From positions 9,462 through 73,461 of the forward strand of contig WGAY01000036.1 in assembly GCA_015494585.1 (NCBI GenBank): 64,000 nt of DNA. The letters run 5' to 3'. A model generated the notes under the pieces. The model was not told the DNA's origin. It did no database searches and saw nothing but the letters and a program-made list of their open reading frames with translations. Below are positions 14,413-57,133 of this stretch, piece after piece; within the stretch, counting starts at the first letter, position 1, and each line of letters begins with the position of its first letter. The translations under genes were made by a program, and so were the position numbers. This DNA is from Candidatus Omnitrophota bacterium (GTDB taxonomy: Bacteria; Omnitrophota; Gorgyraeia; S143-82).

Positions 14413-14420
14413 ATCCTTTA

Positions 14421-35142: not shown

Positions 35143-35159
35143 ATCTTTCTTCTTAAATA

Positions 35160-36461
35160 TCAGTCCTTTATACTCCCCAGGGATATCTCTTTCTGGGCTA
35201 GAATCGAGGATGTCCACAACTGCTTGAGGACCTTGTAGGCCTTTTTGGGTCTTCTCACATTAAGCCCTGTATCAGGATCAATTTTTCTGGACAAGGCAAC
35301 TATTCCCCACCACTCTTCATTCATATTCATATTATTGTCACAGGCTATATCGTGATAGTATCCTCCACAAGACCAATCCCCCCGCTGATCATGCCTGTAC
35401 CAGGCCTTGGGGTCATAAGGGTCACTCTTCCACCACTCATCTGTCCACTCAAATACTATTCCTCCGACGACATTCCCTCTACCTGTACTGGCTGCTAGAT
35501 TCCGTTCTATTTCACGCCAGAGATCGGCTATGTACTCGGCCTGTATATCCTGATTTTCCTCCCTATGCAGGGAATCAAAAGAATCAGCACCAAATTCCAT
35601 AACAAAGAATGGCTTATCAGGGAAAAATCTTTTCATATCCCTCCAGATATGTCCAAAGCTCTTTCCGGTAAACAAGGTTACACCCACCAGGTCTATATTT
35701 TTACAGACCTTTCCAGCAACATCCAGTCCCCTTGGCCCACCATTCCCCAACGCAACGAGCCTCTTGCCATCTATCTTTTTTATTTCCTTTGCAATCTCAT
35801 CCACAAAACTGTAGTAAATCTCGGCCTGCCTTTCCCTGCGCTTAGCAGGATCCCGTATTTTAAGAAGGTCTTTGGTAATCCAGGCATTGATGTTCTCAGG
35901 CCCAAAGGAAAAGTTGTTTTCATTGCCCAGTACCCACATAATTATGCCAGGCTCATCCTTTAAGGCCCTAACCATCTCCAACACAGACTGTTTTACCTTT
36001 CTCCTAAACTTGGGATCCCCATAATTCGGGCTATTCCAGAAACCCAGCCAGTGTCCCATAATCGTATAGATCCCATATTTCTCATAGAGGATATGTATAA
36101 ACTCCTTTGTCTGCTGGATGTCTTTGCCTGGCTGGTAAAACCGCACGGCATTTGCTCCAAGTTCCTTTATCAAGGGGGCATCGAGCTTCAAGACCTCTTT
36201 ATGAGAAAAAATATCGTACTCCCAGTTCTTGCCAATGGGTACTGGTTGATAAACCACCCCCCGCAATATAAAGGGCTTTCCATATACATAGAGAACACAG
36301 CCTTTGGAGGTCTTTTTTATACTTGATATCTCTGTTTCTCTGGCCTCGCCGCAAGAAGTCTGAAATATTGAGAAAAGAAAGAGAAACAGGAAAATAAAAA
36401 GAGGGCCTTCTCGGCCCTCTTTTATAGACTTAACAAAAGTAATTATTGGATTATTCCTCAT
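35160..36461 (-). CDS. Clan GH-A (GH5-like TIM-barrel) glycoside hydrolase lipoprotein
   Basis: Lipobox (QTSC). Putative acid/base WVLGNENNF and nucleophile VMEFGAD. Paralogous to 37714..39627. Confidence 0.65.
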   Translation of the reverse strand: MRNNPIITFVKSIKEGREGPLFIFLFLFLFSIFQTSCGEARETEISSIKKTSKGCVLYVYGKPFILRGVVYQPVPIGKNWEYDIFSHKEVLKLDAPLIKELGANAVRFYQPGKDIQQTKEFIHILYEKYGIYTIMGHWLGFWNSPNYGDPKFRRKVKQSVLEMVRALKDEPGIIMWVLGNENNFSFGPENINAWITKDLLKIRDPAKRRERQAEIYYSFVDEIAKEIKKIDGKRLVALGNGGPRGLDVAGKVCKNIDLVGVTLFTGKSFGHIWRDMKRFFPDKPFFVMEFGADSFDSLHREENQDIQAEYIADLWREIERNLAASTGRGNVVGGIVFEWTDEWWKSDPYDPKAWYRHDQRGDWSCGGYYHDIACDNNMNMNEEWWGIVALSRKIDPDTGLNVRRPKKAYKVLKQLWTSSILAQKEISLGSIKD

Positions 36462-37611
36462 ACACTATATCATCCAGATAAAAGGTACAACCCTCGGGAT
36501 TGACATCCGCGTTAGTAACCCAGCAAAAACCACCGATTATGTAGGACATATCCTTACCCGAGAGATCAATTGTATACTTTTTCCATTCCTTACTCAATAC
36601 TATTGGCCCTATCTCTGCTGAATCAGAATCAGAGTAGTTATTCTGTATACCACCGACCTTAAATGCCTCTATTCGCTCTCCTCCTTTGGCTCCACGGGCC
36701 CAGAAAGTGAGCTTCCTGGCCTTGCTAAGGTCATAACCCTTATCCAATTGCCCCCAATTATTTGCAGGCTCAAGCCAATATACACCGGCCCATCTGGCCC
36801 CTCTTGATGCCTTTGCGGTATAGACGAATTTTATACAGGTATCTCCACTATGGGGATCCTCCTCAGAAGCATCGTTCATCTTTATATCAGAATAGTCGCC
36901 CATAAATCCAGAAGGCACAAAGTGATTCTCTACTGAACGTTTGTCAATATAGACAGCGAAGGGCATTGGTTCAGGACCCTTTGTCTCAGCCTTTAGATTG
37001 GGGTCATATTCAAATTTTATATCGTCTAGATAGAATGTGCATCCATCCGGATTCTGGCCAGCCTGAAGTGTAAAGGCAAAACCGCCACTTATGTAAGATA
37101 GATCTGCTCCAACCAGATTGATTTCGTATTTCTTCCACTCATCTGTAAGCTGGATAGGCCCGATCTTCACATCCGCTGTATCTTCATAAACCTTTCCGTT
37201 TATACCACCCACCTTAAATTCTGCTATTATCTCGTCTCCATACTCACCCTTCGCCCAGAAGGTAAGTTTATTCATAGAAGATAGATCAAAACCGCCCTGC
37301 TTTGTCCCCCAGTTGTTGGGAGGATTCTGCCAATATACACCTGCCCAACCCTGTCCTTGAGACTTATCCGCAGTGTAGACTACCTGTATGCAGGTCTTAC
37401 CAGAATGTACATCCTCGGAATAGGCCTCATTTAAACGTATATCGCCGTAGTCTCCCATATACCCAGAAGGCACATAATGATTCTCAGGAGATCCCTTATC
37501 CGTATATATAACAAAGGTATCTCCTTTTGGAATCTTAATCCCTTCTGCCTGCGCCGCATATCCCAGTATTGCCCCTGTAACAAACAACACTGCCAGCAAC
37601 ATTCTACGCAT
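36451..37611 (-). CDS. Secreted protein made of two tandem CBM-like domains of about 180 aa each
   Basis: Signal peptide, then two repeats sharing ENH(Y/F)VPSG(Y/F)MGDY.DI..N...E.D.HSG.TCI..VYTA......WAGVYW..P.NNWG......DLS....LTFWA.G......I..FKVGGI. Confidence 0.6.
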   Translation of the reverse strand: MRRMLLAVLFVTGAILGYAAQAEGIKIPKGDTFVIYTDKGSPENHYVPSGYMGDYGDIRLNEAYSEDVHSGKTCIQVVYTADKSQGQGWAGVYWQNPPNNWGTKQGGFDLSSMNKLTFWAKGEYGDEIIAEFKVGGINGKVYEDTADVKIGPIQLTDEWKKYEINLVGADLSYISGGFAFTLQAGQNPDGCTFYLDDIKFEYDPNLKAETKGPEPMPFAVYIDKRSVENHFVPSGFMGDYSDIKMNDASEEDPHSGDTCIKFVYTAKASRGARWAGVYWLEPANNWGQLDKGYDLSKARKLTFWARGAKGGERIEAFKVGGIQNNYSDSDSAEIGPIVLSKEWKKYTIDLSGKDMSYIIGGFCWVTNADVNPEGCTFYLDDIVYEE

Positions 37612-37713
37612 ACCTTACCTCCTCTTTAATGGTTTCCCCAAACCTTTCATTGATTCTTATATTTTAATATAGACCTCACAATTAGTCAAAAACAAAATAA
37701 AAATTTTAAAAAA

Positions 37714-39627
37714 CTATTCCCTCCAGGCCTTACGAAGATAATAGAATACCTGACGAGGAGAACGTTTAAACGGGGAATCCTTTCCATCGCCCTGGCCAAA
37801 CCATCCCAGCCATTCTTCATACATATAGCCGTCTATAAATGGACCTGGCCATCTGGACTCTGTGTTATGCACGAATGGCTCATAGCCCTTCCACCATTCA
37901 TCTAGATATTCAAAAGCAAACCCCCCGATGGAATTTCCCACGCCGTCATACTCGGCAGAATTGAACAAGATATCCTCCCAGCACCCCAGGTAATAAAGCG
38001 CCTGGGCCCTTTCTATTTCCTCCCTAGACATTGCCTTTGCATAGGCAGGGCAACCATACTCGGTTATCATTAAGGCCTTTCCAGGGGCCAGTCTGTGGCC
38101 TAGTTCCCAGACATCACCAAAACCTGAATTCCCCCTGTAGGCATTCAGCCCATATATGTCCACATCAGGACAGTACTTAGCAAACTTATCGAAATAGAGC
38201 ATATCTCCATTGCATATGGCCACTGGCCTGGTAGGATCCATCTCTTTGATTATTTTTGCAACCTTATTGACAAATCTATAATAGGCCTCTGGATTTTTCT
38301 TTGCATTGTTGGCAACTCCATAATTATTCTCGTTACCCAAGAGCCAGAACAGGACATAAGGTTCATCCTTAAATTCATTAACCATCTTCTTGACGCTCTC
38401 TATCATATTCTTCTGGTGCACAGGATTAGAATAATCAGTGCCCTCATCCCAGCTTGCCCCGCTACCAATGGTATACATCCCCAGAAAGTCTCCCATGACC
38501 ACGCGAATGCCAAACCTCCTGTACAAATCTCTCAACAATTTCTTGTTCACCTCATCTGGATGGTGATATATGCGCAAGGTATTTACACCCATTGCCCTTA
38601 AAATAGAAAAATCCCCAACCGCATACTCGTCTGAATCCTGTCTATTGTTCTTATTCCAGTCTATCCAGGCATCGTAAGGGCCATCAGGCAAACCATTCCC
38701 GTTATAGTCATAGTACATCCAATTCTTCATTGTCCCGTTATCCGGGCTTTGGCCTATCTTGGTAGGGGAGTAAGTTACTCCCTTAATGATATAAGGGTGT
38801 CCGTCGACCTGTAACTGCCAATGACCATTGTCATATCTAACCAACTTAGTGCGTTTACCCCCTTTGATCTCTACTATCTTATGTGCCCTTAGATTTATCT
38901 TTTTAGGGAAGACATCTTTTTCTGAGGCAATTTCAATAATCTGTCCAGGATTTACTACGGCCTTATCGTTCAATATGTTGTTATCCTGACCATTCTTGAT
39001 AAAGATACTGGCCCCTACTAATTTCATTTTTAGCTCTGGATAACGTCTTAATAAAAATTTTATCCTGTACAACGAAGTAGGGCCAATATACCAAGGGGTA
39101 TGCCAATAGGTCCAGCCATAGACACCAGGATAATGGATAACTATAGCATAATAGGCCTTTATTGCGTGAGACAGAAGACCCGCTCGTTCTAATATCTGGG
39201 CTATATAAAACTGCTTAACCCCCGGAGGCTCTGGTGCAGAACACCAAACAAAAAAACTTGCCAATGGATCCTGGCCATAGAGAAAATTCCAGTGGTTGCC
39301 TCTTAAGTAACCTTGCTTTCTATATTCTTGATATTTAGGGTCCCATCTAAAACTGGTAGTGTTTGGATATATCCCCTCCCCAACTGCCTTAGAAAGGCCT
39401 TCCTGATCCTTTATTATATATTTATAATTCTCTGTTCCTATTCCCTTAAACTCTCCATATTTTTTGTAATCGACAATACGCTCTAAGCCATAATCGTATA
39501 GACCGAATTTCGGCAACGGCAACTTTTCCACATAAGGCAAAAAATTCTGTGTGCCCTTGCAACCAACAAAACTAACACCTATCAAAAAGGTTGTAATCAA
39601 ACCCAATATTATAAAAACCTTATTCAC
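37714..39627 (-). CDS. Clan GH-A (GH5-like) glycoside hydrolase lipoprotein with an N-terminal extension
   Basis: Lipobox (VGCKG). FWLLGNENNYG and MITEYGCPAY catalytic motifs; paralogue of 35160..36461. Confidence 0.65.
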   Translation of the reverse strand: MNKVFIILGLITTFLIGVSFVGCKGTQNFLPYVEKLPLPKFGLYDYGLERIVDYKKYGEFKGIGTENYKYIIKDQEGLSKAVGEGIYPNTTSFRWDPKYQEYRKQGYLRGNHWNFLYGQDPLASFFVWCSAPEPPGVKQFYIAQILERAGLLSHAIKAYYAIVIHYPGVYGWTYWHTPWYIGPTSLYRIKFLLRRYPELKMKLVGASIFIKNGQDNNILNDKAVVNPGQIIEIASEKDVFPKKINLRAHKIVEIKGGKRTKLVRYDNGHWQLQVDGHPYIIKGVTYSPTKIGQSPDNGTMKNWMYYDYNGNGLPDGPYDAWIDWNKNNRQDSDEYAVGDFSILRAMGVNTLRIYHHPDEVNKKLLRDLYRRFGIRVVMGDFLGMYTIGSGASWDEGTDYSNPVHQKNMIESVKKMVNEFKDEPYVLFWLLGNENNYGVANNAKKNPEAYYRFVNKVAKIIKEMDPTRPVAICNGDMLYFDKFAKYCPDVDIYGLNAYRGNSGFGDVWELGHRLAPGKALMITEYGCPAYAKAMSREEIERAQALYYLGCWEDILFNSAEYDGVGNSIGGFAFEYLDEWWKGYEPFVHNTESRWPGPFIDGYMYEEWLGWFGQGDGKDSPFKRSPRQVFYYLRKAWRE

Positions 39628-40213
39628 AATCAGCCTCTTTCAATTTGCGTATCTTTGCCTCTGACTCATCTCTTACCTTCCAGTACCATCCACGCGGATC
39701 CCAGTTCTGCGCAAGAGGAAATTCCTTTATTGCCCTACGAAAATAATCCACGGCCTCTTTGCACCTGCCCTGTTTTTCATAGGCCTCTCCTATCACATAA
39801 TAGGCCGTTCCAACTGCATTTAACTCCTTATACTTGTCCTCCTCTCCGGTCCTAGGGAACTGACCATTTAAGGACTCTTGTTGTTGCCTTGCTATCTCAT
39901 TAAATCTGTCTATCAACCTCTGGGCAATCTTGATAGCATCAGCAAAGGCCCCTTTACCAAGCGCAGACCAGGCTTTAGTCAGCAATTGATCCGCCTCAAG
40001 ATTTTGTAGTTCTTCCTCGCTGATCTCAAAATGCACCTCTCTACTCTCTCCATCCCCTGTGATAAGTTTTGATTTATCGAATTGAGGAGCACCTTTAGCC
40101 GCAGGAAGAAGCCTTGGTCTGGAAAAGAGTTCTCTCTCAAAATCCTTTCTACAACCAATAAAAGACAACGGCACTAAAATACAGACAACCCACAAAACTA
40201 ATCTGAAAAACAC
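39620..40213 (-). CDS. TPR-like lipoprotein
   Basis: Lipobox (IGCRK) and TPR-like helical repeats (AIKIAQRLIDRFNE...YVIGEAYEKQGRCKEAVDYFRRAIKEF). Confidence 0.5.
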   Translation of the reverse strand: MFFRLVLWVVCILVPLSFIGCRKDFERELFSRPRLLPAAKGAPQFDKSKLITGDGESREVHFEISEEELQNLEADQLLTKAWSALGKGAFADAIKIAQRLIDRFNEIARQQQESLNGQFPRTGEEDKYKELNAVGTAYYVIGEAYEKQGRCKEAVDYFRRAIKEFPLAQNWDPRGWYWKVRDESEAKIRKLKEADCE

Positions 40214-40228
40214 CTAACACTCCCCTTC

Positions 40229-41083
40229 TTACTGTCCCGTGAGGGCACCAGCAGTTATACCCTTTATTATATGCCTCTGCATCAATAGGTAAACGATTAT
40301 AACCGGAACAACGGTTATGGTCATACCCGCCATCAAGAGGGGATAATCCACGAGATGGACCCCCTGAAAGACCATTAATCCTCTTGGCAGAGGCATCTTC
40401 GCCTTATCCTGTAATATCAACATTGCGAGCAAGTATTCATTCCATACCATAAGAGTATTAAATATAATCACTACGGCCAGGGCAGGCCTTGCTAAGGGTA
40501 GAGCTACGTGAAGCCATATCCCCAGCCTGGAACAGCCATCTATACGCGCTGCATCTTCTAGATCCCGTGGTAGCTTATCAAAAAATGTCTTTAGCAAAAA
40601 TATCGCAAACGGCAACCCCATATTTATCTGGGGCAAGATATAACCAATCCTTGTATTCACCAGGCCCAGCATCTTGAGCAACACAAATAGAGCAATAAAT
40701 GCACCAGGGATCGGAATCATCATACTCGCTATCAAGAGGATGTAAAAGAAATTCTTAAAGGGAAATTCTAGCCTGGAAAAGGCATAGGCCGCCAGAGAAG
40801 AGAAAAGGACAATAGCAGTTACCACAACCACTGTATAAAAAAGGCTATTTAAAAAGTATTGTCCAAAACCGCCCTTGGTCCATGCGTAATAGAAATTCTC
40901 CCAGTGTTGCTGGGCAGGCCATAGACTCATATCCTTAAATACCGAAATCTTTGTCTTCAGGGCAGAGACAAACATCCACCAAAGAGGGAATAAACAAGAC
41001 AACGCCACTGCAGTAAGTACTAGATAAGATAGACTCAATTTGACAAATCTCTGCAGTCTATAAAATAGGGATTCGGACATCAT
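40229..41083 (-). CDS. Carbohydrate ABC transporter permease (MalG/UgpE-like)
   Basis: Six TM segments and the EAA-like loop (DLEDAARIDGCSRLGIWLHVALPLARP). Confidence 0.9.
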   Translation of the reverse strand: MMSESLFYRLQRFVKLSLSYLVLTAVALSCLFPLWWMFVSALKTKISVFKDMSLWPAQQHWENFYYAWTKGGFGQYFLNSLFYTVVVVTAIVLFSSLAAYAFSRLEFPFKNFFYILLIASMMIPIPGAFIALFVLLKMLGLVNTRIGYILPQINMGLPFAIFLLKTFFDKLPRDLEDAARIDGCSRLGIWLHVALPLARPALAVVIIFNTLMVWNEYLLAMLILQDKAKMPLPRGLMVFQGVHLVDYPLLMAGMTITVVPVIIVYLLMQRHIIKGITAGALTGQ

Positions 41084-41087
41084 ATTT

Positions 41088-41975
41088 TTATTCTCTCTTC
41101 ATCTTATTAGATACCCACAACTGCAACATCGATACAGTCAATAGAATAAGCCCAAAGGCAATCCCCTGGGCACAGGCATAACCAAACCTACCAGCACCCT
41201 GCATAGATGCCAGGATCCTTGTCACTGGCACCTCTGTATGATAGCCTGGACCACCATTTGTAGTGGCAGCGATTATATCGTAAATCTGCATACTACCCAA
41301 AATCGTCAATATGGAAACCAATATGAATACAGGTATCATAAGCGGCACAGTAATGTACCAAAACCTCTGCCAGGCATTGGCACCATCGACCCTTGCGGCC
41401 TCATATATTTGTTGGGGAATATTCTGAAGCCCTGCTAAAAAGATAACAAAACCCCAACCAAAGCCCCGCCACATATGCACAGCCGCAACCGCATTCAAGG
41501 CCGTCTTTGGATCAGCAAGCCAGTCCCTTACTAAGTGTTTTAGGCCCATATGGACCAGTGCTACATTCAAGATACCATCAGGATATCTAAATATCCACTT
41601 CCATATCAAACCAATAACAATCCCCGACAACACAGGGGGCAGGTAAAATATGACTCTGTAGACATGACCGCCCTTTATATCATTGGCACATAACAAGGCA
41701 AGTATCAGGGCAATACCATTTTGAATAGTCAACGCCAAAAAGGTAATCCAGGCCGCATTCATGACAGAACTCCACCATACCTTATCCTGGGTAAAGACCT
41801 CTACAAAATTGGCAAGACCGACAAACTGCATATTCGAAGAGATCCCATCCCAGGACATCAAAGATAACTGAAAGACCTTAAAAAAGGGATACAACCCAAA
41901 TACCAGAAACAAAAGCAAGGCAGGCAGTATAAATAGATAATTTGTCAAGGTATACCATCTCTTTACCATAATCAC
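41088..41975 (-). CDS. Carbohydrate ABC transporter permease (MalF/UgpA-like)
   Basis: EAA loop (IYEAARVDGANAWQRFWYITVPLMIP). Confidence 0.9.
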   Translation of the reverse strand: MIMVKRWYTLTNYLFILPALLLFLVFGLYPFFKVFQLSLMSWDGISSNMQFVGLANFVEVFTQDKVWWSSVMNAAWITFLALTIQNGIALILALLCANDIKGGHVYRVIFYLPPVLSGIVIGLIWKWIFRYPDGILNVALVHMGLKHLVRDWLADPKTALNAVAAVHMWRGFGWGFVIFLAGLQNIPQQIYEAARVDGANAWQRFWYITVPLMIPVFILVSILTILGSMQIYDIIAATTNGGPGYHTEVPVTRILASMQGAGRFGYACAQGIAFGLILLTVSMLQLWVSNKMKRE

Positions 41976-41981
41976 ACCAAA

Positions 41982-43349
41982 TCAACTAGCCGTATTGTTC
42001 TGCTTTTGTCTCTTCTTTTCCATCTGGCGAGCCTTGACCTTCTGAACCTCTTCTGCTACTTGTTTAGCGGTCTTTTCTCCCGTAATAATAGACTGAAGGC
42101 CCTTGTCAAAGGCCTCTACAACCACTGAATCCTCTTGAACCGGAAAGTTTCTCGGATGATAAACATATTTCATTCCACTCAAAAATCCCTTTAACTCTTC
42201 CGGTACAGACTCGAGACACCCCCTGACCGCCGGTATGCTCAAGGTCTCTTTGGCCAGCCTTACCTGTTGCTCTTTCTGGGTAAGCCAATTCAGAAATTCA
42301 ACGGCCATCTGGCTTTTATCAGACTTAGCATTTACAGCAAACCATGTCCCAGCACCACCCCAAACCCCTCTGGGATTAGCATTAGAGACCTTAGGCGGAA
42401 GTATTATTCCTATTTCTATCTCGGGATTCATATCCTTATACACATGAACCGCCCATGAACCATTGAAAGCAAAGGCGTCCTTTTCTAGAGCAAACTCCAG
42501 TTCTGCATCTTTATTGGATTTTATTACCACCCCTGACGCAAACACCCCTGCACGAGCCATTCGCTCTATTATGGAGAAGACCTTTATCCAATCGGGATCT
42601 GTATATGGAACATCGCCCCTATAGGTGGCAATCATCTTCTCCTCACCCATAATATTCCAGGCAAAATTAGAGGCCATACAATCTATAAGCCAAGGTTCGC
42701 TAAAACCGCTTACCAGCCCCTGATATCCGGCCTTTTTTACGGCTTCTACCGCAGCCAAAAATTCATCCAGGGTCTGAGGTGGATTTTGAGGGTCTAGTCC
42801 CGCTTCACGAAAAATCTTTTTGTTATATATATATTGGATATTAATTACGTCTATGGGCACCCCATAGATTCCACTCTCTACACCAAACTCATTCCCGGAG
42901 ACAAAAGAAACGCTCTTTAATGCCTCAGGAAAAAACCTGCCCTTCCACTCCTGGTTGTTCTTTTCCATATAGGAATCTAGCTTTAAGACATGGCCTGCCT
43001 TTACAAAGTTTGCAAAGTCACGTTTACTGCCCAGTATACCGTATATCTCTGGGAGAGTATTGGTCTGGGCTGATGCAATTATTTTCTGATTATAGGCCTC
43101 CGAAGGTGCAAAGACTTCCATCTTTACATAAACACCTGTCTTTTCGTAATACTCTCTAGCCAGTTCATTAAGGGCATCTTCCTTATCCGTTAGCCAATGC
43201 CACATAACAACCGTTTTGGACGGATCCGCATTTATCTTATTTTTAGGGGAAAGGCTACAACCTGAAATAAGTAAGAAGGGAAGGAAAGACATAAAAATAC
43301 CCGCAGATATAATCAGCCGTTTCATAAATTTCTCCTTTCGATTTGTCAT
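41982..43349 (-). CDS. Extracellular solute-binding protein (family 1) lipoprotein for the sugar ABC importer
   Basis: Lipobox (LISGCS). About 450 aa with the MalE-like layout (WHWLTDKEDA...). Confidence 0.85.
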   Translation of the reverse strand: MTNRKEKFMKRLIISAGIFMSFLPFLLISGCSLSPKNKINADPSKTVVMWHWLTDKEDALNELAREYYEKTGVYVKMEVFAPSEAYNQKIIASAQTNTLPEIYGILGSKRDFANFVKAGHVLKLDSYMEKNNQEWKGRFFPEALKSVSFVSGNEFGVESGIYGVPIDVINIQYIYNKKIFREAGLDPQNPPQTLDEFLAAVEAVKKAGYQGLVSGFSEPWLIDCMASNFAWNIMGEEKMIATYRGDVPYTDPDWIKVFSIIERMARAGVFASGVVIKSNKDAELEFALEKDAFAFNGSWAVHVYKDMNPEIEIGIILPPKVSNANPRGVWGGAGTWFAVNAKSDKSQMAVEFLNWLTQKEQQVRLAKETLSIPAVRGCLESVPEELKGFLSGMKYVYHPRNFPVQEDSVVVEAFDKGLQSIITGEKTAKQVAEEVQKVKARQMEKKRQKQNNTAS

Positions 43350-43446: not shown

Positions 43447-44766
43447 CTATTCTAAATATGCCAATTTTCTCTCATAATCCCACTTAGGATAATCCTTAAA
43501 AGGTACAAAATGGATATTGGTATTTATTCCCTTTCTCGATCGTATCGCCTCAGCCATTGTTCCGGCATATAGAAGAAGATCGCCTTTTATAGAATCTGTC
43601 TTTAACTGAAAAAAGATATCGACACCATCCAGGCCCTTTTTCATCTTAAAGGCACCTGTACACCTGGACGCCAGAGCCTCTGTAGAATACAACAAATCTT
43701 TGACCTCCTCCACATACAAAGTCTCTCCAGCTATTTCCAGAGATCTGGGTTTACCCCAGAGGAGGCACAAAGGCCAACGAAGGCCTTCGTCTTCTATACC
43801 ATAACGCGCCACTGCCTCTTCATAGCTCATTAGTCTCACAATCTCCTCTCCGCCATATCTGAGTAAAGGCATCGCTGTATCAAATAACGTCGAGATCACT
43901 AGCCTACTCCCCAACTCTTCCATAAGGAACATTTGCGGACTGTATTGAAATACCATCGGGTAAAATCCATAACCAAAGTCCTCTTCCCGACGAATTATTT
44001 CCTTACGCACCTTGACAGTAAAAGGCGTCTCAAAACACACATTAAGCCCTAACTCTGCCATACCAAAAGAAGAAAATATATCTCTTATTCCAAATGTCTT
44101 TTCAAGATAGATACGATAAGATTCAGGAAATGGCTCCTCCCCTATTATTAGTTTCAAAGCAGTTCCTGCGGCCGCCTCTTTAAAACCCATCTCCAGTAGA
44201 TTTTTCACAAAGGTATTATCCCCGATGAGGATAATCTGGGAAAAATGCCTTCCAAACCGCTTGGCTACTTCTATCGCAGTATCCTCTCTTACACTAGTAT
44301 TTATCACCGAACAAAGAGAGCTGGTTACATATATCCCCATCGACAATGTATTGATTATTAAGGTGGGAACCTTTGCAACACCAAAAAAGAGGTCCAATAA
44401 TAGATCTTGCTGCAACTCTGAGTAGTCGAGCTCCTTTTTAGCAACAACACCAAAAGAAAAAAGTCCACCAGCTCCAGAACTCGGAATAAGCGAAAGAGGC
44501 ACAGGACGATTTTTATATCCAGGAAGGACGAAATCCATCTCGCCAATATGAACTAACCTCTCCTTCTCCAAGACAGGCAATGAAAGGAAGTCTCTATACG
44601 AACCTAAGGGATAGCTAATACCTTCCTCTTTTAAGAACCTCTGGTATCCAGCGGACAAAGAAATTATGCGATTTGCCCTTTTGAGAATAGAGACAGGGGA
44701 AGGATGAATCCCTAATCGAGGGAGCCTCTGGCGGAACAGCCATTTCAACAGATAATATTTCCGCAT
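43447..44766 (-). CDS. PaaK/CapK-like adenylate-forming enzyme (phenylacetate-CoA-ligase superfamily), putative
   Basis: 439 aa with a degenerate P-loop-like IPSSGAGGLFSF and a PaaK-like two-domain size. The assignment is by architecture only. Confidence 0.4.
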   Translation of the reverse strand: MRKYYLLKWLFRQRLPRLGIHPSPVSILKRANRIISLSAGYQRFLKEEGISYPLGSYRDFLSLPVLEKERLVHIGEMDFVLPGYKNRPVPLSLIPSSGAGGLFSFGVVAKKELDYSELQQDLLLDLFFGVAKVPTLIINTLSMGIYVTSSLCSVINTSVREDTAIEVAKRFGRHFSQIILIGDNTFVKNLLEMGFKEAAAGTALKLIIGEEPFPESYRIYLEKTFGIRDIFSSFGMAELGLNVCFETPFTVKVRKEIIRREEDFGYGFYPMVFQYSPQMFLMEELGSRLVISTLFDTAMPLLRYGGEEIVRLMSYEEAVARYGIEDEGLRWPLCLLWGKPRSLEIAGETLYVEEVKDLLYSTEALASRCTGAFKMKKGLDGVDIFFQLKTDSIKGDLLLYAGTMAEAIRSRKGINTNIHFVPFKDYPKWDYERKLAYLE

Positions 44767-44778
44767 ATGAATCTAAAT

Positions 44779-45477
44779 TTAACTCTTAAAATATTCATAG
44801 AATGCAGGTGCAGTTTCTAATACCGTCTTCTCTGCCTCAGGAAGATACAAAACATAGGGATACACCGTACCCATACATTCAACCGGACCACCTACCTGAG
44901 TAAATCTTACCCCTGTTTTAGATAGAAGCTTCTCCAGGGACTTCTCCATCAAGGCCGTCCACCAATTGATACTATTTGCCTTTGAGTATTTATAGGCGGC
45001 CTTATAGAGGCCAAAGACCATTGGCCTATAGCGTCGATTATCTTTGTTAGGATGATTATCTAGATAACTGTCTACCTCGTAATAGAGTGCATCTCCTTGT
45101 CTCTGTCTAAACCCTTTCGATATAACAAGTCTAGAAATCTCAACCGCATTCTCTTCCATTAAACGAATCTTCAGATCTTCAGGGACATGCCGTTCGATTG
45201 GTGCCGCTAATTTTACAGAAAACATAGGAATAAGTCGCATATAACCTATTAAGAAATCTCCTGCAAAGGCACCAAAATGGACAGAAATATCATCCCAATC
45301 ATCTAACTCCGTTTGATCAGGATAATCTTCCTCTCGGATAAAACCACATTCATAACAATATACCTGAAAGCGCAAAGGCCCAGCAAGGCTTGCCACCTCC
45401 TCCAAGGAAAGCTGGCGAAAACAAAACGAAAGCCCCCCTATCTTCTCTATACTTTTATACATCTCCCCCATAATCAC
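44779..45477 (-). CDS. LuxI/FeeM-like N-acyl amino acid synthase-type GNAT acyltransferase (PEP-CTERM/exosortase-associated family)
   Basis: LRFQVYCYECGFI...DDWDDISVHFGAF...LIGYMRLIP...EISRLVISKGFRQRQ matches autoinducer-synthase-like acyltransferases of the exosortase-associated family. Confidence 0.6.
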   Translation of the reverse strand: MIMGEMYKSIEKIGGLSFCFRQLSLEEVASLAGPLRFQVYCYECGFIREEDYPDQTELDDWDDISVHFGAFAGDFLIGYMRLIPMFSVKLAAPIERHVPEDLKIRLMEENAVEISRLVISKGFRQRQGDALYYEVDSYLDNHPNKDNRRYRPMVFGLYKAAYKYSKANSINWWTALMEKSLEKLLSKTGVRFTQVGGPVECMGTVYPYVLYLPEAEKTVLETAPAFYEYFKS

Positions 45478-45514
45478 AGGTTAGCACCCTTTTTATCAAC
45501 TAGCAATAAAAAAA

Positions 45515-45588
45515 TGGCGGTGACTGGACTCGAACCAGTGACGCCGCGGGTATGAGCCGCGTGCTCTGACCACCTGAGCTACACCGCC
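45515..45588 (-). tRNA. tRNA-Met (CAT anticodon, elongator or Ile2-lysidine type)
   Basis: Minus-sense GGCGGTGTAGCTCAGGTGGTCAGAGCACGCGGCTCATACCCGCGGCGTCACTGGTTCGAGTCCAGTCACCGCCA gives a cloverleaf with anticodon loop CTCATAC. G1:C72 and a C29:G41 pair argue against initiator type. Followed by T7. Confidence 0.85.
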
Positions 45589-45617
45589 ATATGTAAGTTT
45601 TTATTATATCTTCTAGT

Positions 45618-45650
45618 AAAGAAAAAGGCCAGCAATTTCTTGCTGGCCCT
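45618..45650 (-). terminator. Rho-independent terminator after the PEP-CTERM gene
   Basis: Minus-sense GGCCAGCAA-gaaa-TTGCTGGCC, a perfect 9 bp stem, followed by TTTTTCTTT. Confidence 0.6.
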
Positions 45651-45672
45651 TTGACAATCTCCTAAATACAAA

Positions 45673-46545
45673 TTACCTTCTTCTCCTCCTAAGGACTAGA
45701 CCAACCAGACCAAATCCAAGAAGGAGCGCACTTGCAGGCTCTGGAACCATATCAGAATCAGCATACGTATTTGCCTGCTGGGTCCCTGCACCTGTAACTA
45801 TCCAACCCAGCCTTGTATTATCTGGTTTGGTATTAAAGTCTACACGAATGTCAGAGCCATCCTGCTGAGTATTGGTATCAAAATAATCCTGCCAAAGCCC
45901 ACCAATTACATCGAAGTACGCACTACCATTACCTGTCAGATTAACATAGTCGAAGTTGTTTTTCATAGTAAAATTATAACCATATTGGTCTGACAGGATA
46001 TGTCCTTGCAAATCTAGTAGTAACTCACCATTGGTTACAGTTGGGAATGTAGCTGTACCTGTGCGAGCACTTGGTCCCTGAACAGTGTAATCCTTAGAAT
46101 AATCTCTATAGATCAATGCTCTTCCACCCACCGAATAGGTGTATCCCTGGGCAGAAATATCGATATCATCAAATCCATAATAAAACATCGTAATCTCATA
46201 AGGAGCCGTATACTTATTGAAGACTACTGTATCGCCACTCAAACCCGTTGGGTCAAAGAATCCATCATTATTCGTATCCTGAACAATGTAAGCAATACGA
46301 CCTATTCCAAAGCTGTCCTCCTGACCATCTCCACTGGGCAACTGAGGCAAAGGAGATCCTCCAGAACCATCATATGGATTGTCGTTGATGGGCATCCACT
46401 TGCCGGCCTGGGCATCATAATTATATAACCTACCCCAGTCGTGAAGGTCGTCAAAAAATATACGAGTAGGGATAGCGTGGGCCACCGCCTGCCAGCCCAA
46501 GAACAACACACCCAGCACACTTGCTAAAGCCAATCTCTTTATCAT
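45673..46545 (-). CDS. PEP-CTERM sorting-signal protein (exosortase substrate)
   Basis: Signal peptide (MIKRLALASVLGVLFLGWQAVAHA), a G/Y/D/T-rich body, and a C-terminal VPEPASALLLGFGLVGLVLRRRRR (PEP motif, TM helix, Arg cluster). Confidence 0.8.
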   Translation of the reverse strand: MIKRLALASVLGVLFLGWQAVAHAIPTRIFFDDLHDWGRLYNYDAQAGKWMPINDNPYDGSGGSPLPQLPSGDGQEDSFGIGRIAYIVQDTNNDGFFDPTGLSGDTVVFNKYTAPYEITMFYYGFDDIDISAQGYTYSVGGRALIYRDYSKDYTVQGPSARTGTATFPTVTNGELLLDLQGHILSDQYGYNFTMKNNFDYVNLTGNGSAYFDVIGGLWQDYFDTNTQQDGSDIRVDFNTKPDNTRLGWIVTGAGTQQANTYADSDMVPEPASALLLGFGLVGLVLRRRRR

Positions 46546-46789: not shown

Positions 46790-47227
46790 TCATTCAATAG
46801 AAACCTTACCAGACAATGCTGAAACACATACATCCCTGGCCTTGCCCATATCATTACTCACCTCTAAACAGACCCTTGTCTGGGCCTCTCCAGAGGGGAA
46901 AAATACCACTTCATTGCCACCCTGCCAAGCTACATCCAGTCCTTTTGGCAGACAATATCTCTTATCAAGAGCCGTCCACTGTTCCTGGTCTTCTCGAAGA
47001 CTTACCGTCAAACAAGAAGAGGTGTCCAATTCCACCTTTGTCCATCTCCTCCTGGAGATGGCTTCCATCCTTGCATAGTTAAACAGGGCAACACTTCCTC
47101 TCAATGCCGACTTAAGTCGCATCCTTTGAGATCCGCCCCTCAAAAAAGGAATCCCTACCCCCAGCATTATGGTAATAATTGCAAGCACAACCAGTATCTC
47201 TATTAGAGTAAAGCCAGCTCTCGCCAT
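46790..47227 (-). CDS. GspH-like minor pseudopilin (prepilin-type N-terminal methylation domain)
   Basis: MARAGFTLIEILVVLAIITIMLGV N-terminus (G|FTLIE cleavage/methylation motif). Confidence 0.7.
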   Translation of the reverse strand: MARAGFTLIEILVVLAIITIMLGVGIPFLRGGSQRMRLKSALRGSVALFNYARMEAISRRRWTKVELDTSSCLTVSLREDQEQWTALDKRYCLPKGLDVAWQGGNEVVFFPSGEAQTRVCLEVSNDMGKARDVCVSALSGKVSIE

Positions 47228-47228
47228 C

Positions 47229-47666
47229 TTACCAATTGGTTATATCGTCTTTTTCACCTTTGTCATCCTTGCCGTTTTGGCCAAAGGAGTAGAGGTCGAA
47301 CTTATATTTGTGATGGACTCCAGGATAGGTATACACATAAGGGTTGCCCCAGGGATCAACAAATTCCCCTTTATCATTCAATTGATCCTCCTTGAACTCC
47401 ATATAAGGGCCGTACCAATCTGGATTATCCTCGTTATCACTCAATGCCTTTACCACGTCTGCTATATCACCCCTAGGATATGATCCCATATCTTCCTGAT
47501 ACTGCTCTAGCGCTGACTCAAGTGCGGCTATCTCTGCCTTGGCTCGAGAGATGGTGGCCCTTCTGCGGGCAGCCTGATTGGCGGTGGTAATAAGTCCTGC
47601 CAGTATCATAATTATGGCAATAACGACTAACAGCTCTATAAGGGTAAAGGCTCTCTTCATCCCCAC
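47229..47666 (-). CDS. gspG: Type II secretion major pseudopilin GspG-like
   Basis: KRAFTLIELLVVIAIIMILAGL...RAKAEIAALESAL..Y..D.G.YP...NPYVYTYPG...FDLYSFGQNGKDDKGEKDDITNW matches GspG/PulG conserved blocks. Confidence 0.85.
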   Translation of the reverse strand: MGMKRAFTLIELLVVIAIIMILAGLITTANQAARRRATISRAKAEIAALESALEQYQEDMGSYPRGDIADVVKALSDNEDNPDWYGPYMEFKEDQLNDKGEFVDPWGNPYVYTYPGVHHKYKFDLYSFGQNGKDDKGEKDDITNW

Positions 47667-49854: not shown

Positions 49855-50475
49855 CTACGATCGTTTCCTTGCCATTATTGTCTTTACCATCTTCTGGCGG
49901 ATAAACATCTCCCGGTCATTCTCCTCCAGAACGTCTTCTATCCACTTCTTTATCCTGCTATAAAGCGGGATAAAAAAGACATCCAGGGCATTCACACGCC
50001 TCTGGGTCTTTTTGATCTCTCGCGCAAGTTCATCTACAATATACCGTTTTTCAATATACTTTACAAGCAAATCCTGAATCTCAGGCACCATTGCCAGGGC
50101 CTGATCCATCTCTAAAGTAGAAAAGGCCAGTCCTGGGCGTGGAATATTTCTCTTGCTTATATCAATACGCGGTACTCGCACGCCCATGACACTGTGGTAA
50201 ACCACCTCCACCTCTAATAAGGCATTGCTCTGCAGGATAAACAGCTCCTCTCTTTCCTGACCCAGGGATATTCCTCCCCTCTTAAACTGGCGATAAAATG
50301 CCCTTAATTTGGTATGAAGGTCTTCATATACGGCCTGCATCTGGGCAACCTCTTTCATAAACTCGCTCATCAAGGCCTCACGCTTTTTCTCTAGGAGACC
50401 ATATCCATCCCTGGATATCTTGAGATTTTCCTTTACCTTTTGGAGATTACTGCGGGTAGGAGTGAGATTTTCCAT
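49855..50475 (-). CDS. atpD: V/A-type ATP synthase subunit D
   Basis: MENLTPTRSNLQKVKENLKISRDGYGLLEKKREALMSEF is a long coiled-coil central-stalk subunit. Confidence 0.9.
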   Translation of the reverse strand: MENLTPTRSNLQKVKENLKISRDGYGLLEKKREALMSEFMKEVAQMQAVYEDLHTKLRAFYRQFKRGGISLGQEREELFILQSNALLEVEVVYHSVMGVRVPRIDISKRNIPRPGLAFSTLEMDQALAMVPEIQDLLVKYIEKRYIVDELAREIKKTQRRVNALDVFFIPLYSRIKKWIEDVLEENDREMFIRQKMVKTIMARKRS

Positions 50476-50492
50476 AACCAGACCTGCCTATA

Positions 50493-51884
50493 TCAGTCTC
50501 TATTGTAATATTTTTCTATCTGTTCCTTTGTCAGCCTATGAAGCTGGTTTTCTGGCAATATAGACAAGACCTCCCATGCTATATTAAGGGTCTGTTCAAG
50601 ACTACGGTTCTCATCATAACCCTGGGAAAGGAACCTTTTTTCAAACTTCTCTCCAAACTCCAAGAATTTCTTATCCCTTTCACTCAATTCCTCCTCCCCG
50701 ACGATATCAGCAAGGCTTCTTATCCATTGCACCTCTGCATAACTTGCATAAAGCTGATTGGCCACATTGGGATGGTCTTCTCTGGTCCGTCCCTTGCCTA
50801 TCGCATCCTTCATAAGACGAGACAAACTCGGCGGCAGGTCAATGGGAGGATATATTCCCTTTTGATAAAGGGCACGCGAAAGGACTATCTGTCCCTCTGT
50901 GATATAGCCGGTAAGGTCCGGGATAGGATGGGATATATCCATATTTGGCATTGTTAAAAATGGTATCAGGGTTACAGAACCCTCTCTATCCTTTACCCTG
51001 CCACAACGCTCATATAGCGAGGCAAGGTCAGTGTACATATAGCCTGGATAGCCCTTCCTGGAAGGGACCTCATCCCTTGCCGCTGAGAGTTCCCTTAAAG
51101 ACTCACAGTAATTAGTCATATCTCCTATTATCACCAATACATGCCTGCCCTTCTCAAAGGCAAGGTATTCTGCCAGGGTCAAGGCGCATCTAGGGGTAAT
51201 AATCCTCTCCTCAGGAGGGTCATCGGCCAGATTTAAAAACATCGTCACCTTATCCATATTTGCAGTATTCTCCAAGACATCCCTGAAAAATAGGGCCTCA
51301 TCAAAACGAATGCCCATCGCGGCAAATACAATGGCGAATTTCTCAGCCTTTCCAGAAACAGAGGCCTGTTTTATTATCTGGGCAACAATCTCATTATGGG
51401 GGAGGCCAGAACCTGAGAATATAGGTAGCTTTTGTCCTCTAACGAGGGTATTCATTGCATCGATAGCACTGATCCCGGTCTGTATGATGTCACGGGGATA
51501 GTCGCGTGACATTGGATTAATAGCAAGACCATTTATATCTACTTCCTTATCTATAGTAGGAAGCGGATAATCATCTATAGGCTTGCCCGTACCATTGAAA
51601 ACCCTGCCTAGCATCTCTTCAGAAACACCGAGTTTAAACGGTTGTCCCAGAAACTTTGCCTTTGCTTTACTGGTAGAGATGCCAGCCGTTCCCTCAAAAA
51701 CCTGAACGATTATCGCCTCCCTGCCGGCCTCAAGGACACGCCCAAGCCTACGTGAGCCATCGCCTATATCGAACTCAACCATCTCGCCATAGAACACCCC
51801 ATTTATAGGCTCCAGTACCGCTATGGCACCGCGTAGTTCCTTGAATCTAGAAGACTCCTTTACCCCTTCAAATATTAACTCCAT
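50493..51884 (-). CDS. atpB: V/A-type ATP synthase subunit B
   Basis: Non-catalytic nucleotide-binding subunit ([10 protein letters not shown]...IVFAAMGI...[20 protein letters not shown]). Confidence 0.9.
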
Positions 51885-53634
51885 ACTTTGCCCCTATCTC
51901 TCTAAAGGCCTCATCCAGTCTCTCTCTAAACCTATCAAACTCTTCCAGCTTATCGTTTGAAATCTCCTCCTTTAACCTCATTATCTGAGCAAATTCCTCC
52001 ATCTCAATGATTGTCAGGACATGGATGCCCACATCCAAGAGCTCTTTGGCACTGTCATAGAAAAACAAGATAAGGTCTATTATCTTGAGGCCTTTCTCTG
52101 GTGAAGAAAAACTATCCGAACTATATGCATTCTGCTGGAGAAAACCGAAGCGTACCAACCTGGCTATCTCTATAACCAATCTCTGGGAATCGGGCAAGGC
52201 ATCAACTCCTATAAGCTGGGCCACCCGTTCAAGCCTATCTGCCTCCTGCAAAAGGGCCATTATGCGCGTGCGCAACTGGCCCCAATCTGCACCCTTGACA
52301 TTCTCTCTCCACCAATCAGTAAGGTCATCTACATAGCCACTATAGCTGTCTATCCAATTGATGGAAGGGAAGTGCCTCTGTCCAGCAAGCCTCTTATCCA
52401 ATGCCCAGAATGTGCGCACGAATCGCTTGGTATGCATGGTCACTGGCTCTGAGAAATCCCCTCCTGGGGGAGATACCGCACCTATCACTGTAATAGATCC
52501 CCTTTTGCCGCTCAGTGCCTCTGCATAGCCGGCCCGTTCATAGAATTCCCCCAGGCGCGAGGCCAGATACGCAGGATATCCTTCTTCGGCAGGCATCATC
52601 TCTAACCTCCCAGCTATCTCACGCAATGCCTCTGCCCAACGACTCGTGGAATCTGCCATCAGTGCAACACTATAGCCCTGGTCCCTGAAGTACTCGGCCA
52701 TAGTGATACCTGTATAGACACTTGCCTCGCGTGCCGCAACCGGCATATTAGAGGTATTGGCTATTATTATAGTCCTCTCAATTAAAGGCCTTCCTGTGCG
52801 CGGATCCTGAAGTTCAGGGAATTCCTCTAATACCTGAGTAATCTCATTGCCCCTCTCACCACAACCTATGTAGATAATAATATCCGCCGACGCCCACTTC
52901 GCAAGCTGATGTTGGGTAATCGTCTTACCAGTACCAAACCCACCTGGTATAGCCGCTACCCCTCCAACCGCAACCGGAAACAGGAAGTCTATCACCCTCT
53001 GCCCGGTTATAAGGGGCACATTCGGCCTGAGTCTCTTTAAAACCGGCCGTTTCTTCCGTACGGGCCAACGATGATACATCGGGAGGGCAATCTCTTTACT
53101 GCCCAAATCTATCTTAACAACAATATCCTCGAGCCTGTATTTACCTTCGCTGGCGACCCAGAGGACCTTGCCTTTTATGTCTGGTGGCAGCAGGATCCTG
53201 TGTTTAATAAGAGAAGTCTCCTCAACCTCGCCTATAATATGGCCTGGCCCAACCACATCTCCTTCCCTGACCTGCGGAGTAAAGGCCCACATCCTCTCTC
53301 TGGAAAGGCTCTGTGTCTGTACCCCGTTTTCGACAAATATTCCACAGGCCTGGCGAATGTCCTTTAACGGCCTTTGTATACCATCGAATATATTTCCCAG
53401 AAGACCTGGCCCAAGTTCGACAGATAAAGGATATCCCTTATCCTCAATCTCATCACCAGGAGAAATGCCAGTGGTGTCCTCATATACCTGGATAACCGCC
53501 TTATCTCCCCTTATCCCGACTATCTCACCAACCAATCCGGCCCTGCCTACCGAGACCTGATTTCCAACAGGACTGGTTGAAAGCCCACCTGCTATTACCA
53601 CCGGCCCATTAACAGACCAGACATATCCCCGCAT
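51868..53634 (-). CDS. atpA: V/A-type ATP synthase subunit A
   Basis: Catalytic subunit with P-loop ([10 protein letters not shown]) and the insert region typical of A subunits. Confidence 0.9.
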
Positions 53635-56600: not shown

Positions 56601-56978
56601 TAACTCATAAGGCCTAATCGTCATTCTTTGCTTCACTGCCTGGGCCCGCGAGGCTATACCTGATTGAAATGGCTCATAAAAGATAAAATCTGAATCCCTT
56701 TGAAACTTTACAAAGGTACGAAATCCATATCGGGAAACGGTTTGATAGGCCTTATTTGCAGGATAAAACTCCATAATCGCCCCATCCTTGCCACTTATCC
56801 CAAAGCTGGATATAGCCTGCCCACGATTCACATAAAAGGCCCATAAGGGAATGCCATAAAGCCCAGCTATTCCCGGGAAGAAACTCGAAAAGGGACGAGC
56901 CAAATTATACTCGTCAATGACAAACCCGCCATCAGGCAAGACCGTATAAACTGGTTCTTTATCCGACCAGGCATCCAT
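53682..56978 (-). CDS. Hypothetical 1098 aa cytoplasmic protein, possibly a glycoside phosphorylase/hydrolase-like (alpha/alpha)6-type enzyme
   Basis: No signal peptide. Segments such as FGISGKDGAIMEFYPANKAYQ and NGNYRDMNQNRRLDVFFHPEVGD faintly resemble GH94/GH36-like phosphorylase cores. Low confidence. Confidence 0.3.
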   Translation of the reverse strand: MDAWSDKEPVYTVLPDGGFVIDEYNLARPFSSFFPGIAGLYGIPLWAFYVNRGQAISSFGISGKDGAIMEFYPANKAYQTVSRYGFRTFVKFQRDSDFIFYEPFQSGIASRAQAVKQRMTIRPYELEIEEVNKTLGMKISVVYFTLPGERLPALVRVVSIRNLSNSRPMSLEVLDGMPVILPYGLNQFIVKNMFRTAEAWMQARHIDDFLGFYKVRVELDDRPEVVKVEKGNFYFSYALSKGKTNALRIISDPDTIFGSVLDFDYPEEFLEDKRFLYPDEQMLQNKLPCAFSFQRVKIPPSGEAEFVTLIGHASGEREASRFARLALSSSEYILNKRIENRNLVSGIMDEVFTVSSFVEFDKYTAQSYLDNLLRGGYPIKLPTLNGHHIFYVYGRKHGDLERDYNNFNLEPTFLSQGNGNYRDMNQNRRLDVFFHPEVGDSNVKLFMNLLRLDGYNPLQINGVRFVLRQGPAELEKWLSGFVNAKALPVLRDFLVRTEFSPGQLFSFIKEKNIKIRGGEERFLKRLLSECERIEDAEHREGFWTDHWTYNIDLIESYLAVFPDEEKRLFFEDKTYTFFDSEYYVARRDEKFVLTKNGVRQYKAVRKDKDKSKLISERPQYKNKVRTLYGKGDVYYTSLFVKLLTLLAAKVMNLDPYGVGIEMEADKPNWYDSLNGLPGLIGSSSSETMEVLRLIRFLKDLVLRYKGFFPSVNLPEEIASLIDEQINKLFDKELGMEYWQEEGKLREAYREKVFWGLSGKENSLALDDLLVYLETAEKIFLKAIERAIDKKSGLVNTYFYYIAEEWEEIEGKTHVSGQPAVRVTRFSQHILPWFLEGQVHYLRILNDKDKARKLYDAVKKSPLFDQELEMYKVCASLKNESLEIGRSAVFTPGWLENESIWLHMEYKYLLELLKSDIGKPFFSDILKTVICFQRPEVYGRSILENSSFIVSSAFPDESQWGRGFVARLTGSTVEWIHVWMLMCVGDKFFWVDENGQLVFEFSPKLPEWLFTSESRKVPARGALPANSFAFQLFGKTLVVYKNPKRYNCYSDGVGVMRIEVISNQEGKVFSVEGNRLEGQLAYLLRSGGIREIICEIGKK

Positions 56979-57055: not shown

Positions 57056-57133
57056 TGGCGGGGACGACGGGATTTGAACCCGCGATCTCCAGATCGACAA
57101 TCTGGCATTCTAACCAGGCTGAACTACGTCCCC
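57056..57133 (-). tRNA. tRNA-Asp (GTC)
   Basis: Minus-sense GGGGACGTAGTTCAGCCTGGTTAGAATGCCAGATTGTCGATCTGGAGATCGCGGGTTCAAATCCCGTCGTCCCCGCCA. The anticodon loop is TTGTCGA, CCA is encoded, and the gene is followed by T8. Confidence 0.85.

Follow-up and report, generated by a model that had tools for sequence, protein, structure and literature searches.

Organization of the locus

The 64-kb stretch of contig WGAY01000036.1 analyzed here (referred to below as the window) belongs to a metagenome-assembled genome (MAG) of Candidatus Omnitrophota, and we were concerned with three genes within it that encode a secreted protein with a PEP-CTERM sorting tail, an acyltransferase of the N-acyl amino acid synthase type and a putative adenylate-forming ligase. 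Every feature named in the original prediction, which had been made from the DNA letters before any database search, was found at the position given there, and all lie on the minus strand (Table 1). The matches are far beyond chance, as curated score cutoffs are exceeded and the acyltransferase/ligase/PEP-CTERM arrangement recurs in a relative, locus L003, although its proteins are only 42–52% identical to those of the window.

Table 1. Features of the locus, in the order of transcription
Feature	Position in the window	Strand	Basis or remark
GspG-like pseudopilin gene	47229-47666	-	First in transcription order
GspH-like pseudopilin gene	46790-47227	-	Second in transcription order
PepA-like secreted protein with PEP-CTERM sorting tail, 290 aa	45673-46545	-	TIGR02595, PF07589, NF033554 alignment
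PEP-CTERM domain, residues 267-290	roughly 45676-45747	-	TIGR02595, PF07589
Intrinsic-terminator-like hairpin, 13-bp stem then T run	45623-45652	-	3' of PEP-CTERM gene
tRNA, anticodon CAT	45514-45589	-	ARAGORN
N-acyl amino acid synthase-type acyltransferase, 232 aa	44779-45477	-	TIGR03694
Putative divergent PaaK-type (ANL superfamily) adenylate-forming enzyme, 439 aa	43447-44766	-	Profile and fold

Only 12 nucleotides separate the stop codon of the acyltransferase gene from the start of the ligase gene, and the next gene in transcription order encodes a sugar ABC transporter. The hairpin after the PEP-CTERM gene suggests that its transcription is separate from that of the two enzyme genes, and terminator and tRNA together part it from the two-enzyme operon. 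The order in L003 is FolD, MTHFR, GspG, a GspH-like protein, the PEP-CTERM protein, a terminator (equivalent hairpin at 9115–9150), tRNA-CAT, acyltransferase and ligase; in L003 the coding regions of acyltransferase and ligase share 4 nucleotides, and the downstream genes are unlike those of the window. The GspG- and GspH-like pseudopilin genes lie directly upstream of the PEP-CTERM gene both in the window (46790–47666) and in L003 (7195–8032). Such pseudopilins were not among the recurrent neighbors in the 80 metagenome loci described below, and the window also carries a GspF gene at 28913–29983.

ARAGORN identified a CAT tRNA where a tRNA had been predicted, between the PEP-CTERM and acyltransferase genes. 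Initiator tRNAs typically have three G-C pairs in the anticodon stem; because these are missing here and bases 1 and 72 pair, the tRNA is of the elongator type, and it may be either a tRNA-Met or a lysidine-modified tRNA-Ile2. Its place directly upstream of the acyltransferase gene, kept in a relative with 52% identical proteins, might suggest that the acyltransferase uses an aminoacyl-tRNA (Met-tRNA) in the manner of FemAB-type or aminoacyl-phospholipid enzymes. We regard the likelihood of such a mechanism as next to negligible, since the fold of the acyltransferase is LuxI/FeeM-like and not FemAB-like, and single-copy housekeeping tRNA genes often lie beside other genes, which calls for no functional explanation. 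A tRNA-CAT occupies the same position in L001, L002 and L003, whereas no tRNA-Met was found in 56 other cassette loci, and on these counts the tRNA as a functional part was rejected. It is an incidental, lineage-specific passenger without a role in the system.

The PEP-CTERM protein is PepA-like

The C terminus of the secreted protein, VPEPASALLLGFGLVGLVLRRRRR, comprises PEP motif, hydrophobic helix and basic cluster, and scores above threshold on both sorting-domain models (TIGR02595, 26.4 bits for a cutoff of 16; PF07589, 24.6 bits for a gathering score of 20.7), so that what had been described as a textbook PEP-CTERM sorting signal is borne out. Read by eye from the sequence, the N terminus is signal peptide-like (MIKRLALASVLGVLFLGWQAVAHA, then IPT), and a hydrophobic N terminus ending in A-x-A recurs across the PepA-like family alignment. 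No other open reading frame (ORF) in the window carries a PEP-CTERM tail. On the PepA model NF033554 the protein reaches 50.5 bits, under the cutoff of 80, yet it aligns over its full length (residues 6–290 to profile positions 4–260 of 261). Because of this score we call it PepA-like and not a PepA equivalog; a typical member of the family to which it belongs among the neighbors of the ligase (family c3, present at 39 ligase loci, see below) scores 45.5 bits on the same model. Its identity to the L003 orthologue is 52%, and a profile search returned no solved structural relatives of the PepA-like family.

The window protein thus shares with PepA (NF033554; PMC9850573) its full-length alignment, signal peptide and PEP-CTERM tail and differs from it in falling short of the model cutoff. 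PepA-type PEP-CTERM proteins take part in floc formation (PMC9850573), and a keyword search of that paper gave no mention of an acyltransferase or a biosynthetic ligase.

The acyltransferase is a member of the exosortase-associated synthase family

The acyltransferase had been assigned to the exosortase-associated, autoinducer-synthase-like family from its motifs, all of which are present in the protein (LRFQVYCYECGFI, DDWDDISVHF and EISRLVI). The assignment holds: hidden Markov model (HMM) TIGR03694 gives 147.9 bits against a cutoff of 111.95 (E 3.1e-43, residues 34–229). All of the invariant columns of two family alignments are kept (Arg-36, Tyr-40, Glu-43, Glu-57, Asp-59, Asp-62, Arg-81, Glu-113, Ser-115, Arg-116, Arg-124, Arg-126 and Asp-129). 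An AlphaFold2 model built with 50 homologues (predicted local distance difference test, pLDDT, of 85) has as its nearest PDB structures the LuxI-type enzymes RpaI, LasI, BjaI, TofI, MesI and EsaI together with FeeM (Foldseek E of 8.7e-9 for RpaI and 1.2e-7 for FeeM), with generic GNATs behind. As TIGR03694 is passed and the predicted fold is nearest to LuxI-type enzymes and FeeM, the protein is more than a generic GNAT, a reading that we rejected on these grounds. On the FeeM model PF21926 it scores 20.3 bits, under the gathering score of 27. It has the same fold as FeeM but belongs to the sister family TIGR03694, and FeeM-type enzymes substitute for the TIGR03694 type beside the same ligase family in 19 loci and in the fused protein P0114 (see below). 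NCBI and JGI already name the acyltransferase family of the window. A scan of genome contigs with the acyltransferase as query returned one near-identical short contig only.

Members of the TIGR03694 family are reported to make long-chain N-acyl amino acids, and the synthase genes are often adjacent to PEP-CTERM/exosortase genes, in the passages of PMC7293339 and PMC4897644 that cite Craig, Cherry and Brady (2011). From this family knowledge the acyltransferase of the window would be expected to make an N-acyl amino acid, and the synthase/PEP-CTERM link in those passages accords with the original prediction of an acylated small molecule connected to exosortase-sorted proteins. Like other TIGR03694 systems, the acyltransferase adjoins a PEP-CTERM protein, and its relatives have an exosortase and EpsI within 10 kb. 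The window differs in having no exosortase nearby, in comprising three genes only, in being interrupted by a tRNA and in its host, an Omnitrophota MAG and not a cultured Proteobacterium.

Given that LuxI-type synthases head the structural matches and that there is a faint match to the LuxI-type model Autoind_synth (PF00765, 13.0 bits, E 0.077), we considered whether the enzyme might be a quorum-sensing synthase that turns S-adenosylmethionine into an acyl- or aryl-homoserine lactone, using an unusual acyl-coenzyme A (CoA) provided by the ligase, while the PEP-CTERM gene would be unrelated. This is very unlikely. The PF00765 score lies under the gathering score of 24, whereas TIGR03694 is clearly passed, and the quorum-sensing reading was rejected on these HMM scores. 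No LuxR-type regulator is adjacent in the window, PepA-like proteins and exosortase/EpsI co-occur too regularly for unrelated neighbors, and family members make N-acyl amino acids according to the same passages of PMC7293339 and PMC4897644. What the locus does share with RpaI and BjaI, the closest structures, is a LuxI-fold acyltransferase that goes together with a ligase able to activate an acid. The products of RpaI and BjaI, made with S-adenosylmethionine, are homoserine lactones that serve in quorum sensing.

The ligase represents a divergent PaaK-type family

The ligase has no Pfam match at all, AMP-binding included, and scores 27.1 bits on the PaaK model TIGR02155, whose cutoff is 646. 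PaaK (6e-16) and LuxE (4e-5) were nevertheless detected when solved structures were searched with a profile, and an AlphaFold2 model (pLDDT 75, predicted template modeling score 0.76) matches PaaK-family structures over the full length, namely BT_0428 (4rvn), NatL2 (6tm4), AjiA1 (6wuq) and PaaK1 (2y27), with a Foldseek template modeling score of about 0.62, an E of about 1e-17 and an identity of 14–18%. The protein retains the motif set of PaaK-type ANL enzymes, with SSG at 96–98, the (F/M)G..E motif, Glu-238, Arg-303, Tyr-304 (of RY..(D/E)) and the C-terminal Lys-434, and has two conservative changes, D308E (specific to this species cluster) and R339K (also in other members). It shares with PaaK and the PaaK-fold ligases (4rvn, 6tm4, 6wuq and LuxE, 7xc6) the full-length two-domain ANL fold and these motifs; apart from the low identity and PaaK score, it differs in its P-loop, which reads SSGxSGxFSFG and not SSGTTGKP, and, from PaaK, in its partners, which are synthases and PEP-CTERM proteins and not paa catabolic genes. 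Profile and predicted fold thus uphold the original assignment as a PaaK/CapK-like putative adenylating enzyme, and we describe the ligase, on its motifs and model, as a probable PaaK-type adenylate-forming enzyme of a very distant, unnamed family.

This family emerged only by exhaustive searching. Word-index searches returned 4–6 relatives, whereas HMMER against 1.84 billion cluster representatives returned 722 representatives at E ≤ 1e-3 and 356 at E ≤ 1e-10. The family has neither a Pfam nor an NCBIfam model. Among 50 members scanned there were no Pfam matches, and only weak matches to the PaaK, F390 synthetase, FlxY, DVU_1553 and LuxE models, the best PaaK match having an E of 8.6e-13. At least one member is labeled phenylacetate-CoA ligase by JGI, a label that is probably misleading. 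No close relatives of the ligase were found on annotated plasmids. One family member (P0064, 771 residues) is fused to the seven-transmembrane N-terminal region of a histidine kinase (PF16927), and hybrid histidine kinases recur beside the ligase in FeeM-type loci (L049, L050, L060, L068 and L070).

The ligase is a regular neighbor of synthases and PepA-like proteins

To define the genomic context of the ligase, 80 metagenome loci were picked on the ligase alone with an 8-sequence sub-alignment as query, and all ORFs around them were clustered; these loci represent one typical branch of the family, separate from that of the window. The commonest real neighbors were a PepA-like PEP-CTERM family of about 280 residues (39 loci) and a TIGR03694-type synthase (32 loci), with a FeeM-type synthase (PF21926, 113 bits) at 20 of the 80. 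Where at least 3 kb of sequence was present on both sides of the ligase (27 loci), a synthase of the TIGR03694 or FeeM type occurred in 21, lying within 600 bp of the ligase in 17, and synthase and PepA-like protein were both present in 17. The link persists even though the median identity among the ligases is 40%, and after collapsing the ligases at 70% identity a synthase was found in 14 of 20 clusters and both partners in 10.

At least four gene orders were seen around the ligase: PepA-like protein, synthase and ligase, as in the window; synthase and ligase facing a convergent PepA-like gene; divergent synthases and, after them, LolA-like, LolCE and LolD proteins, an unknown protein, sometimes ThiF and Amidohydro_2 enzymes, and the ligase; and the ligase with a convergent FeeM-type synthase. 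Two fused proteins combine the enzymes in opposite orders: in P0017 a TIGR03694 domain (147.8 bits) precedes the ligase, and in P0114 the ligase precedes a FeeM domain. The 4-nucleotide stop/start overlaps in L003 and L014 suggest translational coupling. We also examined six independent loci from the synthase side, taken as the top matches of a profile built from ligase-adjacent synthases. The ligase was present in five of the six (E ≤ 1e-131, within 8 kb), and an exosortase (PF09721) and EpsI lay within 10 kb in four, one of them an Omnitrophota MAG. Sigma-54 activators and GAF histidine kinases of a type tied to PEP-CTERM regulation are also present at several of these loci. Coupling of the ligase to the synthase, and of both to PepA-like proteins and exosortase loci, is conserved, and the ligase/acyltransferase pair, whose conservation the original prediction had asked about, is kept far beyond close relatives.

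These data bear on whether the three genes are adjacent merely by inherited Omnitrophota gene order, with the ligase an ordinary CoA ligase of aromatic-acid catabolism. Lineage synteny does exist, as the block shared by the window and L003 includes FolD, MTHFR, the two pseudopilins and the tRNA, and because it holds housekeeping genes this block is by itself evidence of synteny only. We nonetheless find such an explanation most improbable, contradicted as it is by the variety of gene orders, the co-occurrence counts, which persist at low ligase identity and after de-duplication, the two fusions and the synthase-first loci. The very low PaaK score, 27 bits against 646, and the lack of paa genes nearby also argue against a catabolic ligase.

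The 64-kb window contains no exosortase gene, as had been predicted, its polytopic membrane ORFs being an AEC-family transporter, CdsA and GspF, and none was found beyond either window edge, the search covering about 9 kb on the left.

Some cassettes are larger than that of the window. Genes for LolA-like, LolCE-like and LolD-like proteins and an unknown protein of about 390 residues are carried by L019, L020, L029, L031, L032, L040, L041, L048, L059, L063, L066, L086 and L087, and ThiF-type and Amidohydro_2 enzymes are often found immediately upstream of the ligase in these larger cassettes. The Lol-type genes suggest export of a lipid or lipoprotein, and the cassettes further tailoring steps. 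Directly after the synthase, L086 (10717–13428), L087 (10739–12703) and L089 (10747–13437) encode proteins of 650–900 residues with an AMP-binding domain, with or without a carrier domain, and a PlsC-type domain; these recall Aas or OlsA and hint at a two-chain aminolipid. The only synthase-first locus without the ligase, L091, has two adjacent proteins with Mur-ligase and peptidyl-tRNA hydrolase domains (11948–15759), which could take over the carboxylate-activating step in place of the ligase without being its orthologues. Finally, through L060 (6702–7652) and L063 (3049–3927) we came upon NCBIfam NF011425 (PRK14852), a 989-position "hypothetical protein" model; the FeeM-type proteins match its N terminus and the ThiF-type proteins positions 315–560, which implies a natural FeeM-ThiF fusion family.

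A proposed pathway and the order of its steps

Taken together, these data make it probable that synthase, ligase and PepA-like protein form one exosortase-linked cassette, of which the window would hold a minimal copy, a widespread three-gene cassette of PEP-CTERM/exosortase systems. Family membership and published work on the family suggest that the synthase would make an N-acyl amino acid, and FeeM work points to an acyl carrier protein (ACP) thioester as donor. As the conserved adjacency and the fusions show, the PaaK-type ligase acts in the same pathway. It would adenylate the free carboxylate of the N-acyl amino acid, and the adenylated product would then be linked to CoA, to a second amino acid or to a hydroxyl or amine group of a lipid or sugar. 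The PEP-CTERM tail of the PepA-like protein would be cleaved off by an exosortase whose gene would lie elsewhere in the genome. As the genetics of relatives suggests, the product would act together with this secreted protein, and the two would build a cell-surface or exopolysaccharide matrix; in Methylomonas sp. LW13 disruption of the exosortase-system synthase led to loss of a polysaccharide band (PMC11072679). The part of the lipid product beside the PepA-like protein could be that of a matrix component, a signal or an anchor.

Our preferred order, held with somewhat less than even confidence, has the ligase acting after the synthase on the carboxylate of its product. Among the nearest structural matches of the ligase are NatL2 and AjiA1, which form esters or amides with ATP but do not use CoA. 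ThiF-type adenylating enzymes, which act on amino-acid-type carboxylates, are likewise found repeatedly next to the synthases or joined to FeeM-like domains (NF011425), and two Mur-ligase-type genes lie close by in L091, where the ligase is missing. Synthases produced in a foreign host can use the acyl-ACPs of E. coli (PMC4897644), which suggests that a donor-activating ligase is not strictly needed.

The reverse order, in which the ligase converts a free fatty or aryl acid to an acyl-adenylate, a CoA thioester or a carrier thioester for a LuxI/FeeM-type enzyme that acylates an amino acid, is possible but in our view doubtful. Activation followed by transfer is the usual logic of a ligase paired with a GNAT-type acyltransferase, and CoA-dependent LuxI-type synthases rely on a separate CoA ligase. 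The nearest characterized relatives of the ligase are CoA ligases (PaaK, BT_0428 and 2-hydroxyisobutyryl-CoA ligase) and LuxE, and the best acyltransferase structures are the CoA-dependent RpaI (8.7e-9) and BjaI, although the Foldseek E-value gaps among RpaI, BjaI, LasI and FeeM are too small to discriminate. Fusions in both orders fit this scheme equally well. Besides the use of E. coli acyl-ACPs by heterologous synthases, it is weakened by the canonical AMP-binding (and carrier) plus PlsC enzyme that follows the synthase in several loci and could cover fatty-acid activation, and by acyl-ACP being the donor of choice in aminolipid synthesis, where a role for acyl-AMP/acyl-CoA ligases is "not yet established" (PMC11631085). 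That pathway, with OlsB acting before OlsA, offers a further comparison: the N-acyltransferase is distantly related to OlsB, and in relatives of the window cassette a PlsC-type acyltransferase fused to an AMP-binding domain follows the synthase. The window itself has no PlsC-type gene, and the "not yet established" involvement of an adenylate-forming ligase is a difference between the two systems.

Several observations weigh against the one-cassette interpretation or the synthase-first order preferred within it. An exosortase was found neither in the window nor in approximately 9 kb past its left edge. Neither partner lies within 7 kb of the ligase in 6 of the 27 well-flanked loci, and the synthase-first sample is biased to one subfamily because its profile came from ligase-adjacent synthases. 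The fused proteins P0017 and P0114 could be gene-calling artefacts. In the ligase of the window, residue 308 is Glu (D308E), whereas 96% of the family have Asp there. Lastly, the CoA-dependent RpaI and BjaI among the closest structures to the acyltransferase fit the ligase acting first.

Covalent lipid anchoring has been proposed for archaeosortase substrates, and by analogy synthase and ligase might together produce a lipid whose reactive head group is the acceptor in the transfer of the cleaved PepA-like protein by exosortase, in which case the LolCDE/LolA-like genes of larger cassettes would see to transport of the lipid or of the lipidated protein to the outer membrane. We regard this combined scheme as improbable.

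Surroundings of the locus

Nearly every ORF of at least 110 residues between 462 and 56978 is on the minus strand, an unusually long co-directional stretch of about 56 kb, and the orientation switches only past a tRNA-Asp (57056–57133). Downstream of the cassette lies a block (32668–43349, minus strand) of a sugar ABC transporter, a tetratricopeptide repeat protein and GH2-like proteins. In the other direction are genes for V-type ATPase subunits (49855–53634, minus strand: A at 51868–53634, B at 50493–51884 and D at 49855–50475) and for a 1098-residue protein (53682–56978, minus strand) that resembles GH149 beta-1,3-glucan phosphorylase only weakly (102 bits, cutoff 1150). A transfer-messenger RNA (tmRNA) gene at 22672–23073 (minus strand) has a predicted tag peptide, ADEALIAEAEAIANAGAMPMAFAPALVR, that is long for a tmRNA tag.

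Implications

The link between the acyltransferase and PEP-CTERM proteins is already known, from TIGR03694 and from the passages of later papers that cite Craig et al. (2011). What is new here, beyond current annotation, is that a PaaK-type ligase family is the regular third component, and that the partner PEP-CTERM protein belongs to one specific, PepA-like family. Our literature search, whose coverage did not extend to Craig et al. (2011), returned no paper tying a PaaK-like, AMP-dependent or CoA ligase to PEP-CTERM/exosortase systems, and Haft et al. (2006) mention neither ligase nor acyltransferase.

The role of the N-acyl amino acid synthase in exosortase systems has been a standing question since the link was made in 2011. 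With the ligase as a regular neighbor, the synthase-ligase fusions and a PepA-like partner, the pathway becomes approachable with a three-gene construct, and the findings bear on the question of a 2024 review as to adenylate-forming ligases in aminolipid and N-acyl amino acid synthesis (PMC11631085). If the lipid-anchor scheme were true, the long-sought acceptor molecule of the exosortase reaction would be identified. The cassette in the window is an ordinary, though uncommonly compact, example of a known system, from a phylum that has received little study.

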